From a virus: a DNA stretch of 54,645 nt. The translations under genes were made by a program, and so were the position numbers. The notes beneath the pieces are model-generated. The model saw only the letters and a program-made list of their open reading frames with translations, was not told where the DNA came from and ran no database searches. Location: the IMG/VR virus record IMGVR_UViG_3300045988_061800, positions 1 to 54,645 of that record; one strand, given 5' to 3'. Positions 2,945 to 23,367 of this stretch are shown here, one piece after another (the stretch's first letter is position 1; each line of letters starts with the position of its first letter).

Positions 2945-3454
2945 ATGCTGACCCACTACACCGATGCGGAGATCAAAAAGAAGCTGAAAGAACTGGTGGT
3001 CATAGCTGACAGCCGGGAGCAGGTTCATCAGCACATCATTTCCTGGCTGGACAAGCATAACATTCAGCACAAGAGCCGGGCCCTGGAGACTGGAGATTAC
3101 TCCGTCATGCTGGGTGACGCCACTTTCGAGGACGAGATTGTAGTAGAGCGCAAGGCCAACCTGGACGAGATTGCCGGGAACTTCACCAATGGCCGGGAGC
3201 GATTTGAGCGGGAGATGATACGGGCAAAGGCCGGTGGCATCAAGGTCTTTCTGATTGTGGAAAACGCCTCCTGGACAGACATCTTTCTGCATAATTATCG
3301 GTCAGAGCTTAAGCCTCAGAGCTTTGCCGCAACGCTCCTATCCTGGCAGGCTCGGTTTAACCTGACAGTTATCTTCTGTAAGCCATCAGAGACGGCCCAA
3401 ATCATTTACAGCACCCTCTATTACTGGGTGAGAGACCGCCTGAAGCGGGGGTAA
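2945..3454 (+). CDS. ERCC4/Mus81-type structure-specific nuclease (junction resolvase candidate)
   Basis: GDY...VVERKANLD matches the ERCC4 signature GDxn-ERKx3D. Confidence 0.7.
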   Translation: MLTHYTDAEIKKKLKELVVIADSREQVHQHIISWLDKHNIQHKSRALETGDYSVMLGDATFEDEIVVERKANLDEIAGNFTNGRERFEREMIRAKAGGIKVFLIVENASWTDIFLHNYRSELKPQSFAATLLSWQARFNLTVIFCKPSETAQIIYSTLYYWVRDRLKRG

Positions 3455-3458
3455 TCAT

Positions 3459-4031
3459 ATGGATATAGCTCCTGAAATCAAGCGGCTATTGCCTGCTCGG
3501 CAAATGGCGGAGACCTATGGATTCCAGGTAGGACGTTCAGGATTCATGAAATGCCCGTTCCACACTGGAGATCACACAGCCAGTTTAAAACTATATGATG
3601 GTGAAGGCGGCTTCCATTGCTTTGGGTGTGGGGCCCACGGATCTGTCATTGATTTTGTTATGCGCTTGTTTGATCTGAACTTTCGACAGGCCGTGCTCAG
3701 AATCAATGCCGATTTCCACCTGGGCCTCACATCCGGCAAACCAGACAGGATGGAACGGTCAAAGGTGCTAGAAGCCAGGCGTGAAGAGCAGCGGCGGAAA
3801 GACCGGGCTGAAACAAACTTCTATTTTATGCTTTCTGAACAGAGGTACTGGAAGGAGGCAATGGACGTGTTTGCACCCGTCGTTCAGGGCGAGAGATCCT
3901 ACTATCACCCGCTATATGTCGAGGCCGTCAGGCGCCTCCCTTATATTGAATACTGGCTTGACGACTTTATAGAGAAGGGAGGCAAAAAGCATTGGAAGAA
4001 TTGCCCGTATACACAAGGGACGACTACTTGA
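3459..4031 (+). CDS. CHC2 zinc-finger primase-like protein
   Basis: CPFHTGDHTASL...FHCFGCGAHGSVIDF is the CHC2 Zn-finger pattern of DnaG-type primases. Confidence 0.7.
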   Translation: MDIAPEIKRLLPARQMAETYGFQVGRSGFMKCPFHTGDHTASLKLYDGEGGFHCFGCGAHGSVIDFVMRLFDLNFRQAVLRINADFHLGLTSGKPDRMERSKVLEARREEQRRKDRAETNFYFMLSEQRYWKEAMDVFAPVVQGERSYYHPLYVEAVRRLPYIEYWLDDFIEKGGKKHWKNCPYTQGTTT

Positions 4032-17984: not shown

Positions 17985-19607
17985 ATGGAAATTCGGGAGC
18001 TGGTGAAGAGGGCGTTCAAGCGTGACCTCTCCGACCCGTCTGCGTTATCTGATGCCTTTGATACGTTGCGGCTGCTAGAACCAGAAGATTTTACCTTGGC
18101 CCATGAGCGAAACAAGGAAGTACGTCGGCTGTCCGCAAGATTCGCCGCAGAACAAAAAAGCCTCCGTATGTTCGAGCTGAACAAGCGGAGTCTGCTGTTT
18201 GATGCGCCGTATGATTTTGATGCGGCGATAAGATATGCTGAGTGGGATAGAGAGCCGAAAAAGAAGTTTTATATGCCACGCAGAAAGCAGTTACTTCCGG
18301 TTGTTCAAGCTATGCAGCGGCTATCTGAACGGAAGATACGCATTTTGGGTGTTATGGCTCCCCCGGGCGTCGGGAAGACCACCATTGAATTGATGTTCAT
18401 GGTGATGGAGGGGTTAAAGAATCCAGATTTAAGCATTCTGATGGGGTCGCACTCAAATTCATTCCTGCGTGGGGCTTATGAAGAAGTTGGGCGGATGTTA
18501 GATCCTAAAGGGGAGTATTTGTGGAAAGATATTTTCCCATCTATTCAAGTTTGTAAAACCAACGCCCAAGACATGCGGATTGATCTCGGGAAACGAAAGC
18601 GGTTTGAGACCTTTGAGTTTTCGTCTATCGGATCCGGCAATGCAGGCAAGGTCCGTGCGTCAAACCTGTTGGTAGCAGATGACCTTGTACCTGATATTGA
18701 GTCCGCAATGAGTAAAGAGCGCATGGACAAGCTCTGGCAGCAGTATTATACAGACCTCATGCAGCGTATGATCGGAGATTGTGTCCAGCTTCTTGTCCAA
18801 ACACCTTGGACGTTACATGACCCCATTGACCGACTTGAACTAGCCCATGCAGAAGACCCAATGGCAGAGTTTATCCACCTACCTGCTCTGGATGAAAATG
18901 ATGAGAGTAATTTTGATTATCCGTATGGACTTGGGTTTACCACGGCATTCTATCACAATCAGAGAGATGTTATGGACGATGCTTCCTGGAGGGCACTATA
19001 CATGACTCAGCCCATTGAGCGTGAAGGACAGCTATACAATGAAGATGAGCTGCGCAGGTATTTTGAGCTTCCTGACGGGAAACCAGATGCAATCCTGTTT
19101 GTGTGCGATACGAAGGACAAGGGCACTGATTATTGCGTCATGCCAATTTGTTACCAGTACGGGAATGCCTTCTATTGTGAAGACGTAGTATGCGACAACA
19201 GCAATCCAGAGGTTGTAGAGGCGCGGCTGGTGTCAAAGCTCCTTCAGCATAAGGCTCAAATGGGCCAGTTTGAAAGCAACAGCGCTGGTGGGAAAGTAGC
19301 AGAAAAAGTTCAGAAAGAAGTTAAAGAAGCTGGCGGTATAGCGAAAATCACCACAAAATATACGACACAGCAAAAGGAAACAAAAATCATAGTGAACTCG
19401 CCGTGGGTGAAAGACCATGTGCTGTTCAAAGACAACTCTGTCATAAAGAAGGACAAGGAATATCGAAGGATGCTCAACTTCCTTTGCGGGTATACGATGG
19501 CAGGTAAAAATAAGCATGATGATGTTCCTGATGCTTGGGCAATGTTTGCTGAGTATGTTCAGCAACTCGAAGGGAACAAAGTAGAGGTGTTCCGCCGTCC
19601 ATTTTAA
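17985..19607 (+). CDS. terL: Terminase large subunit
   Basis: Walker A MAPPGVGKTT and Walker B-like LLVADDL. 540 aa, upstream of the portal gene. Confidence 0.85.
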   Translation: MEIRELVKRAFKRDLSDPSALSDAFDTLRLLEPEDFTLAHERNKEVRRLSARFAAEQKSLRMFELNKRSLLFDAPYDFDAAIRYAEWDREPKKKFYMPRRKQLLPVVQAMQRLSERKIRILGVMAPPGVGKTTIELMFMVMEGLKNPDLSILMGSHSNSFLRGAYEEVGRMLDPKGEYLWKDIFPSIQVCKTNAQDMRIDLGKRKRFETFEFSSIGSGNAGKVRASNLLVADDLVPDIESAMSKERMDKLWQQYYTDLMQRMIGDCVQLLVQTPWTLHDPIDRLELAHAEDPMAEFIHLPALDENDESNFDYPYGLGFTTAFYHNQRDVMDDASWRALYMTQPIEREGQLYNEDELRRYFELPDGKPDAILFVCDTKDKGTDYCVMPICYQYGNAFYCEDVVCDNSNPEVVEARLVSKLLQHKAQMGQFESNSAGGKVAEKVQKEVKEAGGIAKITTKYTTQQKETKIIVNSPWVKDHVLFKDNSVIKKDKEYRRMLNFLCGYTMAGKNKHDDVPDAWAMFAEYVQQLEGNKVEVFRRPF

Positions 19608-19632
19608 AACACAAAATATTGTGTATAATGCC

Positions 19633-19662
19633 TTGATTAAATCGTATATATTGTGGTATAAT
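19633..19662 (+). promoter_or_regulatory. Strong promoter TTGATT-18-TGgTATAAT driving the tRNA/ncRNA array
   Basis: TTGATT 19633-38, extended -10 TGg at 19654-56, TATAAT 19657-62, directly after the terL stop. Confidence 0.6.
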
Positions 19663-19767
19663 AAAGGAGGATAGATATTTGCCCATATCCGCCAGGTTTC
19701 TTTTCCAGCCTCCTTCACACGGGCGGGGTGGCGGCGGTGCAGCCGCTGCCCCTACTGTGTGCAATAT

Positions 19768-19842
19768 GCCCTTGTAGCTCAATGGTGAGAGCGATACCCT
19801 GATTTGGCATAGTGGACGCCGGTTCGATTCCGGCCGAGGGCT
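19768..19842 (+). tRNA. tRNA-like gene, anticodon GAU by position (Ile-like), atypical
   Basis: Acceptor GCCCTTG/CGAGGGC, D arm GCTC-AATGGTGA-GAGC, T arm GCCGG-TTCGATT-CCGGC. The anticodon arm ATACC-CTGATTT-GGCAT has an A.C mismatch and U at position 37. The variable loop is 7 nt. Confidence 0.6.
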
Positions 19843-20109
19843 TGGTGACCCGCACTTTTTGCGGTAGCCAACTTATTAAACCGCTCCAAAGTACACGGAG
19901 CTGACTGTGGAAAGACACTATACCGGAGGCTTAAAGCGTCAGTTATGCACCGGAGAAGGGTAACGGCGTCCGCCTGTCATGGAGGCGGAAGCGGTGGCAG
20001 CTATGACCTGCCCCGGCGCTATCCCACTGAAAACTGCCCTGCGAGTGGCTAATCATGATGTCGCCGCCGAGACCAGGGTGTGTCAATCTAAGCGAGACGG
20101 CGCAAATAT
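19843..20109 (+). ncRNA. GC-rich structured spacer without credible ORF (possibly part of the large ncRNA)
   Basis: Hairpins include CCGCACTTTTTGCGG and TCCGCCT-GTCATGG-AGGCGGA (19969-89). No RBS-led ORF. Confidence 0.3.
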
Positions 20110-20185
20110 GCCATCTTAGCTCAACTGGTAGAGCAACCGTCTTGTAATCGGTAGGTTGGAGGTTCGATTCCTCCCGGTGGCTCCA
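20110..20185 (+). tRNA. tRNA-Thr (anticodon UGU), CCA encoded
   Basis: Manual cloverleaf: GCCATCT acceptor, GCTC-AACTGGTA-GAGC, anticodon loop CTTGTAA, T arm GGAGG-TTCGATT-CCTCC, then CGGTGGC-T-CCA. Confidence 0.85.
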
Positions 20186-20798
20186 GAGATGCCCGGTGTA
20201 TGCCGGACAAAGCATCATCTTGTGGTGGTGCTTTATATGCCGAGTGCAGCAGCAGAAGCGAAAGCGGCGGCCATGGACAACGCCGTGGACGTGTGGCGGC
20301 TCAATGCCGCCTCTCGGCTCCAAACGCAGATGGAAAGCAAAAGAGGCACTGCGCGATTAAATTAAATGCCAATGGGCGGCTGGACAACCTACTGTCCGCC
20401 ATATGCCGCTCCTCGCCGCATGAGGCGGGCGGTGGCACCAGATGTATGGCACCACAGGTTAAAAGCAGACGGGCCTTCCTTGTGCGCTGTGCGAAAGCGG
20501 CAAGGTGAAAAAATTATTTTTGGCTGACCCCGGCCCTATAAAGATGAACGGTTCCGACTGACGACACCAGCGGAGGGGTTGAGATGTACCGTGATTGCTA
20601 TACGATGAAACTGGCCTACCCATGTGAGGCTGACGGATGTAGGTGTGGTTCCGGCTGTCTTAGGACAAGGCCGGATTGTAACAGGACGGCTGACGAAGAT
20701 TCGTATAGTAATTGTGATGTGATACCGCATAGCGGATTACATACAGGCCCGCGGCAAGCCTGACCAACCCCGCAGCATACCCCGAAAGGGGTATATCT
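20186..20798 (+). ncRNA. About 610-nt highly structured non-coding region between two tRNAs: candidate large ornate RNA (ROOL/GOLLD class)
   Basis: No credible ORF. Several GNRA-capped helices: ATACCCC-GAAA-GGGGTAT at 20777-94 and GCGAAAGC twice. Also GGCGGC-tcaat-GCCGCC at 20295-311 and a recurring CTGACG motif. tRNAs flank it and it has its own upstream promoter. Confidence 0.45.
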
Positions 20799-20872
20799 GG
20801 ACCATTGGCCCGATGGTCGGGCGGGCCCCTCATAAGGGCTTGGTCTTGGTTCGATTCCAAGATGGTCCACCA
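20799..20872 (+). tRNA. tRNA with CAU anticodon (elongator Met or Ile2-type), CCA encoded
   Basis: GGACCAT acceptor, GCCC-GATGGTC-GGGC, anticodon arm GGCCC-CTCATAA-GGGCT, T arm CTTGG-TTCGATT-CCAAG, then ATGGTCC-A-CCA. G1-C72 are paired, so it is not an initiator. Confidence 0.85.
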
Positions 20873-20898
20873 GAATTAGAAAGGAGTCGCCCAACTGA

Positions 20899-21066
20899 AT
20901 GAAGATTGACATTTATTGTCCGGTCTGTGCCGCTGCTGGCATCAATCATGGAAAAGGGCGGCTTTTGATGCAGGTGGATAGCAAAACAACTGGTATAGTT
21001 TATCCATACTGTAAGGCTTGCAAGAAAAACATCAAGATTGAGTTAAAAGGCGATAAAAGCGCCTGA
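20899..21066 (+). CDS. Com-like Zn-ribbon protein (55 aa)
   Basis: MKIDIYCPVCAAAG...VYPYCKACKKNIKIELK: two CxxC pairs about 30 aa apart, as in Mu Com-type regulators. Under 60 aa, so absent from the track. Confidence 0.5.
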   Translation: MKIDIYCPVCAAAGINHGKGRLLMQVDSKTTGIVYPYCKACKKNIKIELKGDKSA

Positions 21067-21079
21067 GAATATATAGTTT

Positions 21080-21128
21080 AGTGCCAAGTGCCTCCGGGCA
21101 ATGCCTGGACGAAGCGTGCCGAGTGCCG
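21080..21128 (+). promoter_or_regulatory. Late-gene motif pair B: AGTGCCAAGTGCCT (21080) and CGTGCCGAGTGCCG (21115)
   Basis: Same motif as at terL, 60-108 nt 5' of the portal start. Confidence 0.7.
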
Positions 21129-21171
21129 AGAGTAGACCTTATACGGGTCTGTTCTTGGCACTTTTTTGTTT
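21123..21171 (+). terminator. Strong intrinsic terminator between the Com-like gene and portal
   Basis: 16-bp stem GTGCCGAGAGTAGACC / GGGTCTGTTCTTGGCAC (with G.U pairs), a 7-nt loop, then TTTTTTGTTTG. The 5' arm starts inside motif copy 2. Confidence 0.75.
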
Positions 21172-21187
21172 GTCTGGAGGTGACAGA

Positions 21188-22663
21188 GTGACTGAAAACA
21201 ATACTGTTCGAGCTATATCCGAGTGGCCGGTCAATGGGCTGACTGGGCGTAGAAAAATTTACACCGCCAAAAAGAAAGTTACCCCGGAAAATGTGGTGGA
21301 GGTGCTGGGCAAGGCACTGGCCGTGCATCGCATCAACAGTGCGGAAATGTCCTATTTGTATGACTATTACAGAGGCAAACAGGACATCCGGCTGAAAGAT
21401 AAAATCGTCCGCCCGGAGATCAACAACAAGGTGATGATTAACCGGGCGAACGAAATCGTGGTATTCAAGTCTGCTTACCTTCTGGATGGCCCAATCCGTT
21501 ATGTGTCCAACGGCGGAGAAGATGATATTTCTTCTAATGTGAATACATTGAATGAATATATGCGAGCCGAGAGCAAAGACACTCTCGACAAAGAGCTGGC
21601 AGACTGGATGCACATCTGCGGTGTTGCGGTCCGCATGGTCCTCACTGACGAAGTCGGAGAAGAAGACGGGTCCCCGGCATCCATATATACCCTTGACCCA
21701 AGAGCGGCGTTTTGCATCTACCATAGCGGAGTAGGGCAGAAAAAGGTCGCTGGTGTGCTGGAACAGGTAGATGATGAGGGACAGCCCTACTTCTGCGTGT
21801 ACACCCCAGAATGGTATTTCGAGGTGCAGAACGGTCAGATCACTAAGCAGGAGGGCCGTACCATCCCCTACATCCCTATTGTGGAGTATGTGAACAATGA
21901 CGCCCGCATGGGTGCGTTTGAGCCGGTCATCCCAATCCTGAACGCAATCAACATGATTGAATCCAACCGGCTTGACAGTATTCAGGATTTCGTCAACGCC
22001 TTTGATGTGTTCCAAAACTGTGAGTTAGAGGACGGTCAATATAAGGAACTGGCAAAGGGCGGGATGGCAATTACTATCAAAAGCGTTCAGGCTGGTATGG
22101 AGGCCAAAGTATACCGCATCGCCTCTGAACTGAACCAGACCAACACGCAGACCATTGTGGACGATTTGGAGGACGCATACCTGACCATCTGCGGGATGCC
22201 GAACCGGAACGGAGGTTCCTCTACCAGCGACACTGGGCAGGCGGTCATTTACCGAGATGGATGGTCTGCCGCTGAGAGCCGGGCCAAGGACACGGAAAAG
22301 ACATGGGAGCGGTCGGAACGGGAGTTCCTGCGGCTGGTGCTGTATATCTGCCGTGAGACTGGCGATTTGGATTTGCAGTTGGCAGACATCAAGCCGGAGT
22401 TCACCCGCAAGAACCTGTCCAATATCCAGTCCAAGGCGCAAGTTCTGGCGGAGATGCTGAACAACAGCAAGATTCATCCGAAGTTAGCCTTCCAGTACAG
22501 TGGGCTATTCAGCGATCCCGAATCTGCGTACCGCGTAAGTATGGATTGGTACGAGGAAAACCAGCGCAAGATGGAGCGGAGCCTGCGGGATGAACTGGCG
22601 GCGGAACGATTTAATGGGAGCGACCCGGCCAATCCGCAGGCCGGCGGCGGTGATACTGAATGA
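21188..22663 (+). CDS. Portal protein (SPP1 gp6-like)
   Basis: GTG 21188 lies 7 nt after GGAGG. The track start 21101 would include the terminator. 491 aa, between terL and the MuF-like gene. Confidence 0.8.
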   Translation: MTENNTVRAISEWPVNGLTGRRKIYTAKKKVTPENVVEVLGKALAVHRINSAEMSYLYDYYRGKQDIRLKDKIVRPEINNKVMINRANEIVVFKSAYLLDGPIRYVSNGGEDDISSNVNTLNEYMRAESKDTLDKELADWMHICGVAVRMVLTDEVGEEDGSPASIYTLDPRAAFCIYHSGVGQKKVAGVLEQVDDEGQPYFCVYTPEWYFEVQNGQITKQEGRTIPYIPIVEYVNNDARMGAFEPVIPILNAINMIESNRLDSIQDFVNAFDVFQNCELEDGQYKELAKGGMAITIKSVQAGMEAKVYRIASELNQTNTQTIVDDLEDAYLTICGMPNRNGGSSTSDTGQAVIYRDGWSAAESRAKDTEKTWERSEREFLRLVLYICRETGDLDLQLADIKPEFTRKNLSNIQSKAQVLAEMLNNSKIHPKLAFQYSGLFSDPESAYRVSMDWYEENQRKMERSLRDELAAERFNGSDPANPQAGGGDTE

Positions 22664-23271
22664 GCGGGTTCTATGATCTTACCGACAAAGCCATTGACCT
22701 TTTGAACAAGAGGGCAGTCAAGCGGTTTGAGGATGCGAAAGACGAAGTTGCGCAGATGGGCTTTGATGAACTCAATGTGCTGGAAGTCACCCGAACACTA
22801 TATGACCAACTGCGCAAGGACAACCAAGATGTCTTTCTTGAACTAGCGCAAGAGCGGTATCAGGAGGCCGAACCGCATGGAGAGGAGCCGCCTAATTTAG
22901 CGTGGTTACTGGCATTGCTGGCGGCGTACAACGCTGTGACGAAATACCAGTATTCCCGCGAATGGGAGCGCAAGCGTGACCGCACAGCGGAGGCTATTAA
23001 CTCTACTACCGCAAAGGTCACAGAGTTTCGCCGGGGCCTTTCCTACTGGGCGCAGATGACGGAATGGTATGCGGTGGAAGTCACAGACCAGTCCACACTG
23101 AAAGCGTTCCAGGACAGCGGCGTGCGCTATGTGAAATGGAACACCATGAATGATGGGCGTGAGTGCTCCACTTGTAAGGAGCGAGACGGAAAAATTTATC
23201 CCATCCGGAGCATACCAAGCAAGCCCCACCCTGGTTGCCGGTGCTGGTATACCCCGGCGGAGAAAAAGTGA
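22660..23271 (+). CDS. Head morphogenesis protein (SPP1 gp7 / Mu F-like)
   Basis: C-terminal DGRECSTCKERDGKIY...HPGCRCW motif. Confidence 0.75.
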   Translation: MSGFYDLTDKAIDLLNKRAVKRFEDAKDEVAQMGFDELNVLEVTRTLYDQLRKDNQDVFLELAQERYQEAEPHGEEPPNLAWLLALLAAYNAVTKYQYSREWERKRDRTAEAINSTTAKVTEFRRGLSYWAQMTEWYAVEVTDQSTLKAFQDSGVRYVKWNTMNDGRECSTCKERDGKIYPIRSIPSKPHPGCRCWYTPAEKK

Positions 23272-23367
23272 ATAAACGGGCGGCTATCCCGACGGGGAGA
23301 AAAGTGGAGTGCCTTGCCACCTGCCGCCTGTTCATTCTACAAGGTTAACTATTGGAGGCGATAGTTG

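Follow-up and report, generated by a model that had tools for sequence, protein, structure and literature searches.

Large RNAs of phage tRNA islands

ROOL and GOLLD are RNAs of phages and prophages that are often found near tRNA islands (PMC12286853, PMC5737381), and both form RNA-only, homo-oligomeric nanocages (PMC12286853). Such large structured RNAs are a standing puzzle; the nanocages were demonstrated only recently, and neither RNA has a known role. The viral record IMGVR_UViG_3300045988_061800 (IMG/VR), analysed here over its full 54,645 nucleotides (nt) and referred to below as the window, contains a 613-nt interval (20186-20798) between a tRNA-Thr and a tRNA-Met. A preliminary description made from the sequence alone had proposed that this interval is one RNA of about 610 nt, either of the ROOL/GOLLD class or a new RNA of similar scale. 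Our analysis indicates that the interval is composite. Its core (20441-20720, + strand) very probably belongs to a new family of conserved structured RNAs, so that the proposal of a new RNA holds, but at about half the size envisaged.

Stable non-tRNA RNAs are also made from the tRNA cluster of phage T4, where 'species 1 and 2' are co-transcribed with the tRNAs and released by the tRNA-processing machinery. In MALAT1/mascRNA, MEN-beta and the tRNA-miRNA units of gammaherpesviruses, non-decoding tRNA mimics let RNase P or RNase Z define the ends of RNAs. The family described here would be a third, unrelated and smaller example of a tRNA-island RNA beside ROOL and GOLLD.

The core RNA and its distribution

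The core and the principal helices of its model in the window are as follows:

20441-20720, + strand: conserved structured RNA core (nhmmer 20445-20717; alignments A2 and A3; RNAalifold; pair counts)
20453-55/20714-16, + strand: closing helix P1
20478-88/20496-20505, + strand: hairpin Pa
20522-26/20531-35, + strand: hairpin Pb
20548-60/20568-92, + strand: helix Pc, in two parts, with a strongly conserved internal loop
20595-20605/20701-11, + strand: long helix Pd, enclosing a branched domain to which hairpin Pe belongs
20650-59/20664-75, + strand: hairpin Pe

The window holds one copy of the core, found by nhmmer at 20445-20717 with a profile of 40 members (E=5e-63). The family is marked by hairpins Pa (GCGCUGUNCGAAAGCG) and Pb (GGCUGNCNCCGG), the Pc pattern ACGG...ACC.GCG.A.GGG.UGA.A.GU.CCGU, the Pd helix, a terminal UUGUG and an NCCA on the 5' side; the window copy aligns through all helices and is preceded by a minihelix ending in ACCA. 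The unit measures 265-280 nt in the window; in the divergent homologue L003 the flanking tRNAs are 325 nt apart.

Exact-motif scans, with three different conserved blocks as patterns, located the core in at least 151 IMG/VR viral contigs and at least 118 metagenome contigs. All locus counts given here (239 and 274 loci, 157 contexts, 128 junctions) are of copies among the matches listed. Among these, the named metagenome contigs derive nearly all from the human gut, and the copies form 18 clusters at 85% identity with two main types. The core is also present in three species-representative genomes, namely Flavonifractor plautii ATCC 29863, Colidextribacter sp. OB.20 and a metagenome-assembled genome labelled Staphylococcaceae; 62 of the 65 matches in the scan of such genomes were chance matches in GC-rich genomes. 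Two uncultured GenBank phages carry it as well (MT835520, and MT835513, which was added by BLAST). It is absent from the isolated phages of the collection searched, and phages Castelnaud and Chenonceau, which share other parts of the region, have no copy according to nhmmer.

Phages and prophages of Flavonifractor, Colidextribacter and their relatives in the human gut commonly carry the family, which is abundant among gut phages of Oscillospiraceae-type Clostridia, and one culturable carrier, F. plautii ATCC 29863, makes genetics and RNA-seq feasible. No published description of this RNA was found in the literature searched, the coverage of which is incomplete.

Structure, strand and coding capacity

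A MAFFT alignment of 40 non-redundant core copies (A3) yielded an RNAalifold model of 74 pairs in 12 helices. Compensatory changes occur at 30 of these pairs, so that covariation in homologues, which the preliminary description had named as a check on a structured RNA, is present. When the 3' partners were slid by 1-3 columns as a control, the proportion of paired cells fell from 91.3% to 34-49%, pairs changed on both sides from 30 to 13-21, cells with changes on both sides from 176 to 33-66, and the covariation score from 0.252 to 0.05-0.10. The observed pair values were reached in none of 500 column shuffles. Helix Pd illustrates the pattern: in the window UUGCUAUACGA (20595-20605) pairs with UCGUAUAGUAA (20701-20711), and at least eight distinct sequence versions occur across the copies, every one of which pairs. 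One pair of Pc is U-A, C-G or A-U depending on lineage.

The paired cells include 496 G-U or U-G combinations as against 67 A-C or C-A, and the folded RNA is therefore that of the + strand. The flanking tRNAs all lie on the same strand as the core.

Further contacts within the core were sought. Mutual information with average product correction, computed for pseudoknots and tertiary contacts, gave a signal dominated by phylogeny, and no pseudoknot is supported in the core. A pseudoknot between the invariant GAGGC and a 5' GCCUU, proposed by eye, fails in L108 and L025. A GAAA tetraloop with an 11-nt receptor (UAUGG/CCUAAG) was discarded as the motif is not conserved across types, as were CsrA-type GGA/GGAUGU sites, GGA not being enriched by a rough estimate from base composition.

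The core is non-coding. Within the most conserved segment the two main types are offset from each other by 1-nt indels at three separate places, and variable columns are spread evenly over the codon phases (21/26/25 in one type, 39/39/37 in the other), with no 3-nt periodicity. Of 274 loci, 178 have antisense open reading frames (ORFs) of at least 70 amino acids across the core; the ends of these ORFs shift and their composition is junk, and no ORF of this length overlaps the core copy in the window. Apparent clusters of conserved antisense 'proteins' were rejected as spurious on the grounds of shifting boundaries, composition and lack of codon periodicity. Also rejected was an ORF of the window type at 20584-20763, preceded by GGAGG at 7 nt, the start codon and Shine-Dalgarno sequence of which are missing in the other main type. 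Over the whole interval the earlier statement that there is no credible ORF is borne out: all are short and overlapping, and the longest (20200-20508, 102 amino acids, rich in Arg, Ala, Gly, Cys and Ser) lacks a Shine-Dalgarno sequence. The core family explains the 'hypothetical proteins' that gene callers have placed across such regions in deposited phage genomes.

Comparison with described RNAs

All 4227 models of Rfam 15 were compared with both strands by cmscan, for the window at the gathering score and for 19500-21200 at E<=10 with lax filters. Under either setting the region returned three tRNAs only, so that assignment to the ROOL/GOLLD class had to be abandoned: no model besides tRNA matches, even at E<=10, and this includes the ROOL, GOLLD, HEARO, OLE and raiA models proposed for the comparison. 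Likewise, there was no Rfam match to RNase P RNA, group I or II introns, self-cleaving ribozymes, 6S or signal recognition particle (SRP) RNA, and no tmRNA was found in the window by ARAGORN (default settings) or Rfam. The best non-tRNA matches were at chance level (sX15, 16.4 bits, E=9.2; permuted tmRNA, 12.8 bits, partial and lying over a T arm). Neither the divergent homologue L003 (at E<=10) nor 12 further loci (at the gathering score) gave an Rfam match in the core; across the window and these 13 loci the non-tRNA matches were one tmRNA, DUF3800-VIII and int-alpA, all outside it.

The core nevertheless occupies the niche of ROOL and GOLLD, in that it is phage-borne, flanked by tRNAs and, in the window, located between the terminase and portal genes. 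It shares with ROOL a non-coding nature and a fold with several junctions that covariation has defined, and neither RNA has a known protein partner or function (PMC5737381, PMC12286853). ROOL, however, has about 580 nt, whereas the core has 265-325 nt, lacks similarity to the Rfam ROOL model and is joined to a tRNA-like handle. GOLLD is likewise found near tRNA islands, and tRNAs can be linked to it, one example lying downstream of a tRNA-Met (PMC12286853). Its length is frequently above 800 nt and its 3' half is conserved, while the core is far smaller and does not match the model; moreover, the tRNAs of GOLLD are situated in an internal linker, whereas the tRNAs or tRNA-like elements of the core flank the RNA.

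The 5' handle described in the next section invites three other comparisons. T4 species 1 and 2 follow the same processing route as is proposed below for the core, but they have only about 120-140 nt and belong to a virulent coliphage. The handles of the mascRNA type are tRNA mimics that have ceased to decode, which agrees with the lost anticodon arm and the retained acceptor, D and T arms of the handle of the core; they are eukaryotic or from viruses of eukaryotes, and are placed 3' of a long RNA or 5' of miRNA hairpins. Finally, tmRNA, which can be phage-encoded, likewise joins a large structured RNA to a tRNA-like domain devoid of an anticodon arm, but its body lies between the two acceptor strands, whereas that of the core lies 3' of the CCA and has no tag ORF. 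No example of a tRNA-like handle on a large structured RNA of a bacterial phage was found in the literature searched.

The tRNA-like element on the 5' side

In the window the core is directly preceded by the following element, which folds at -22.8 kcal/mol and has its ACCA at 20437-20440:

20405-20440, + strand: acceptor-type minihelix with stem GCCGC/GUGGC, hairpin CUCGCC-GCAUGA-GGCGGG and 3' A-CCA

This association is general. NCCA stands immediately 5' of the core at 128 distinct junctions (ACCA in 102, GCCA in 19, UCCA in 5 and CCCA in 2), and at 83 of the 128, versus 15 for shuffled controls, the last 7 nt before the core can pair over all 7 bp with an acceptor-type strand further upstream. 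In some loci the upstream element is a genuine tRNA, L199 having Glu(UUC) and L033 Thr(CGU), for example; other loci have a tRNA remnant there, and both the window type and that of Colidextribacter have a bare minihelix. The elements in this position represent at least seven different frameworks, among which Glu, Trp-like and Thr are real tRNAs.

The largest insight comes from 29 distinct upstream tRNAs (63 loci) built on one common acceptor stem, GCAGACG/CGUCUGC. Besides this stem they all keep the D arm, a T arm that shows compensatory changes, and ACCA, while the region of the anticodon arm has been rewritten, shortened, expanded or deleted, giving total lengths of 72-91 nt. Because the anticodon arm varies, ARAGORN assigns Thr, Cys, Gly, Ile, Arg, Trp or Gln to members of this one lineage. 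Retention of the acceptor, D and T arms with loss of the anticodon arm therefore argues for selection on the features seen by processing enzymes, and not on decoding. RNase P recognizes the acceptor/T-arm helix and accepts minihelices. The fusion to tRNA remnants that lack only the anticodon arm amounts to a natural experiment on which tRNA features are selected, and it points to the tRNA-processing enzymes as the probable makers of such RNAs. Loci with the GCAGACG/CGUCUGC scaffold include L009, L010, L012, L014, L020, L033, L054 and L089, among others.

Downstream and wider context

Of 157 distinct contexts, 43 have a tRNA that starts within 120 nt 3' of the core; most of these tRNAs are Gly(UCC), and that of the window type is Met(CAU). 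The 114-kb IMG/VR contig L199 has the order tRNA-core-tRNA within an island of at least seven tRNAs, and in L108 an intrinsic terminator follows the core directly. In 113 of the 157 contexts no tRNA or terminator stands between the core and the genes downstream, which are TerS/TerL, or a ParB-methyltransferase followed by the terminase. The core is linked both to tRNAs or tRNA-like elements and to the packaging module, and the terminases beside it belong to several unrelated TerL families. A small XRE-type helix-turn-helix regulator is encoded about 1 kb upstream in 44 loci. No general protein partner was found within about 6 kb of the core, the neighbours being packaging genes, the XRE-type regulator and lineage-specific genes only.

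Two neighbouring RNAs were observed in these surveys. L199 encodes a phage tmRNA at 3203-3612 (114.9 bits), about 1 kb downstream of the core. In L150 (Colidextribacter sp. OB.20) the tRNA-Met/minihelix/core unit has a DUF3800-VIII RNA (3073-3137, 53.4 bits) about 115 nt upstream of it; this is another clustering of catalogued and uncatalogued RNAs in one prophage region.

Proposed processing and alternative explanations

The explanation that we favour overall, and consider reasonably probable, is that the core is a new RNA of phage tRNA islands that is excised or capped by way of the tRNA-processing enzymes. It would be co-transcribed with phage tRNAs, from a promoter of the cassette's own in the window and at the head of the late region elsewhere. 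The tRNA on its 5' side, or the remnant devoid of an anticodon arm, would serve as a handle for host tRNA maturation (RNase P and 3'-end trimming), and a downstream tRNA, where present, would provide the 3' cut, in the window through RNase P acting at the 5' end of tRNA-Met. The product would be a discrete, stable RNA of about 280-400 nt; alternatively, the tRNA-like handle might be retained as a 5' cap. Of the parts of this proposal, the route through the tRNA-maturation system appears to us likely, on the whole, to be correct. That the released RNA then acts in trans, like other large RNAs of phage tRNA islands, is put forward more tentatively and is somewhat doubtful.

Several points weigh against this explanation. 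An encoded CCA normally blocks RNase Z, as in tRNA maturation in B. subtilis, which makes RNase Z a doubtful candidate for the 5' cut. The 74-pair structure was derived from the same alignment as the pair counts. The inner branches of the Pd domain and P1 are not resolved by covariation, and since the alignment comprises two main clades with an effective diversity (Neff) of about 13, many of the compensatory cells trace to few events. Transcription, processing and stability of the core RNA are what we infer. Furthermore, the core does not surpass shuffled sequence in minimum free energy (z = -0.5), compared with z = -2.4 for 20186-20440 (200 shuffles each). The argument from fold stability was therefore dropped for the core. 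The interval had been described as helix-dense; this is true of the whole (z = -5.6 on the + strand and -2.2 on the - strand, with 20 shuffles only) but does not extend to the core. It is comparative evidence, not single-sequence thermodynamics, that singles out the important part.

The 113 contexts without a barrier between the core and the next gene also count against excision, since in them a cis-acting leader fits equally well. In such a scheme the core would be the 5' leader of the late (packaging/morphogenesis) operon, acting for example in processive antitermination or mRNA stabilization, and the nature of the next genes (terminase, with or without ParB-methyltransferase) suits it. So does L011, in which the upstream unit is closed by a terminator-like hairpin and no sigma-70 promoter is seen, so that the core would head the late transcript, and so does the strong terminator of the window (21121-21163), which late transcription must read through before the portal gene. 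This is a serious rival but on balance rather improbable, because a tRNA separates the core from the downstream genes in 43 contexts, the window type among them; the core lies inside a tRNA/tmRNA island in L199 and is followed at once by a terminator in L108; in the window it is placed between TerL and portal with a promoter of its own; and a leader has no need of a conserved tRNA handle. The antitermination RNAs known to us are also far smaller (HK022 put has about 70 nt). A further reading, which we regard as speculative and rather improbable, would make the tRNA remnant and the 280-nt core a single chimeric effector, in which a decoding-dead tRNA with its acceptor stem, elbow and CCA end preserved delivers a large folded domain. 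If that were true, its targets might be found among the machinery that responds to the shape of tRNA, for instance RNase P, the ribosome, the enzyme that adds CCA, or a host defence directed at tRNAs; it would represent a new functional class of phage RNA that hijacks the recognition of tRNA, and self-assembling RNAs of tRNA islands might then have a third family.

The remaining alternatives have little to recommend them by comparison with excision or capping of the core. The preliminary description had allowed that the region might be merely a degenerate tRNA array or spacer. This is true of the surroundings of the core, where 20239-20322, 20405-20440 and, outside the interval, probably also 19947-20030 are tRNA remnants, where modules are shuffled among phages, and where phage Chenonceau has a tRNA-Thr with an internal deletion of 26 nt. 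It is not true of the core, for which mere decay is highly improbable: it has no tRNA features, its conservation far exceeds that of the tRNAs around it, its 74 pairs are kept by compensatory change, and it persists beside at least seven tRNA frameworks and in phages with different terminases. Still more remote is a divergent ROOL, GOLLD, HEARO, OLE, raiA, RNase P RNA, tmRNA or group I/II intron; the niche of ROOL and GOLLD, the GNRA-capped helices and the multi-junction fold would agree with such an origin, but no Rfam model matches the core at E<=10 in the window or L003, ARAGORN reports no tmRNA in the window, and the size is wrong for ROOL and GOLLD alike. A coding region on either strand, or a DNA-level site such as pac/cos or attP, is to be given equally little credence. 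The frequent antisense ORFs, the usual location of pac/cos upstream of terS and the involvement of tRNA 3' ends in many attP sites might speak for one or the other; however, the antisense ORFs are absent from the window and 95 other loci, the most conserved block tolerates 1-nt indels, no integrase is adjacent, and the excess of G-U over A-C makes sense only for an RNA of the + strand.

Composite nature of the rest of the interval

Across about 90 related loci conservation peaks at 20470-20680 and declines on both sides, and this peak together with the module boundaries separates tRNA-like remnants, spacers and core from one another; the single RNA of about 610 nt first proposed is thereby replaced by a composite. 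The modules other than the core and its minihelix are:

19947-20030, + strand: spacer 'module A' between tRNA-Ile and tRNA-Thr, with an acceptor-like GCACCGG/CCGGCGC and hairpins with loops of 7-9 nt
20186-20238, + strand: spacer with two local hairpins, shared by the closest relatives only (from the fold; sequence upstream of 20235 is wholly different between loci)
20239-20322, + strand: tRNA-shaped element with acceptor-like stem GCCGAG/CUCGGC, T-arm-like hairpin GGCGGC-UCAAU-GCCGCC and 3' U-CCA
20323-20404, + strand: A-rich linker with hairpin GGCGG-CU-GGACA-ACCUAC-UGUCC-GCC, lineage-specific and present in near-identical relatives only
20721-20798, + strand: 3' trailer, made up of the GAAA-capped hairpin at 20777-94 and two others (fold; columns of alignment A2 beyond about 425)

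The element at 20239-20322 is a discrete block, kept from AUAU|GCCGAG to CUCGGCUCCA while its flanks vary, as in Flavonifractor phage Castelnaud. It is not recognizable as a decoding tRNA: neither this element nor 20405-20440 has an Rfam tRNA match at E<=10, and ARAGORN reports 20222-20322 at its 80% pseudogene threshold only. The 3' trailer is common to close relatives only and is of different sequence in other lineages.

Module A has about 25-31 related loci, among them that of phage Castelnaud, and shows at least one compensatory swap, from CCGG/CCGG to CCAG/CUGG. The region around it (19895-20040) contains a conserved hairpin, CCGCC-UGUCAUGGA-GGCGG, the loop of which resembles a CAU anticodon loop. 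No Rfam model matches this region, and ARAGORN reports the module only at the 70% pseudogene threshold. Module A is probably, though tentatively, a decayed tRNA or a second small structured RNA.

BLAST comparisons with deposited phages reveal a mosaic in which Castelnaud and Chenonceau, both Flavonifractor phages, share the separate pieces 19902-20041, 20235-20332, 20156-20242 and 20401-20441, and the fecal phage contig MT835520 shares 20472-20597. In Chenonceau (L002) the stretch 3055-3167 corresponds to 20105-20242 of the window and contains the tRNA-Thr with its 26-nt deletion (window 20130-20155), which removes the anticodon arm and the 3' half of the D stem. ARAGORN finds no tRNA in this remnant, and hypothetical proteins are annotated across it.

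The individual motifs listed in the preliminary description are all present, and some can now be placed. Its hairpins comprise ATACCCC-GAAA-GGGGTAT (20777-20794), GCGAAAGC near 20261 and 20490, GGCGGC-tcaat-GCCGCC (20295-20311) and GGACA-acctac-TGTCC near 20385. The repeat GGTTCCGRCTG has two copies in the 54.6-kb window, both in the interval, against 0.07 expected, and these form the 5' strands of Pc and of Pe. GGCACCA occurs twice in 21 nt, as the NCCA end of the minihelix and as the start of the core, and CTGACG three times in 140 nt.

The surrounding cassette

The interval is part of what looks like a self-contained phage cassette inserted between the genes for the large terminase (17985-19607), upstream, and an SPP1-type portal protein, downstream. 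Its order is promoter, tRNA-Ile, tRNA-Thr, tRNA-like remnants, core, tRNA-Met, small ORF and terminator:

19633-19662, + strand: sigma-70-type promoter, TTGATT-18 nt-TG-n-TATAAT (consensus scan, 10/12 positions plus the extended -10 TG)
19768-19842, + strand: tRNA-Ile(GAU) (ARAGORN; Rfam tRNA model, 55.2 bits)
20110-20185, + strand: tRNA-Thr(UGU), left boundary of the interval (ARAGORN; Rfam, 60.3 bits)
20799-20872, + strand: tRNA-Met(CAU), right boundary of the interval (ARAGORN and Rfam)
20899-21066, + strand: 55-amino-acid ORF with CxxC...CxxC (zinc-ribbon-like), at the end of the cassette (ORF list)
21121-21163, + strand: intrinsic-terminator-like hairpin of 19 pairs with a U-run, at the end of the cassette (consensus scan)

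ARAGORN and Rfam agree on the tRNA-Thr and tRNA-Met, which abut the two ends of the interval exactly, as had been stated. The promoter noted earlier at 19633 was likewise recovered, and to judge from its sequence would be the transcription start of the tRNA/RNA cassette. The 55-amino-acid ORF is preceded by AAAGGAG, and neither Pfam nor PHROG gave a match to it. Its copies in 24 related loci are 93-100% identical, and as it is confined to these 24 of 239 RNA-bearing loci, exclusively close relatives, it is not a general partner of the RNA.

The longest portal ORF (ATG at 21101) contains the terminator-like hairpin at 21121-21163, and the true start is therefore probably further downstream, near a GGAGGTG followed by GTG at about 21170-21181. 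In each array a highly stable hairpin rich in G+C, followed by a short AAUAU leader, stands ahead of the first tRNA or tRNA-like unit; the hairpin is GGGGUGGCGGCGGUGCAGCCGCUGCCCC in the window (19700-19767) and GGGCGGGGC-UUCG-GCUCCGCCC in L011. An AUAU leader lies ahead of every tRNA and tRNA-like unit of the window (19764, 20106, 20235 and 20401).

Two catalogued RNAs occur elsewhere on the + strand of the window. An int-alpA RNA (23277-23344, 57.5 bits, above the gathering score) follows the gene for a Mu-F-like head protein (22660-23271), and a second int-alpA match was found in the related locus L219 (4790-4854). A RAGATH-31 RNA at 46541-46594 matches its Rfam model over the full length with 84.4 bits.

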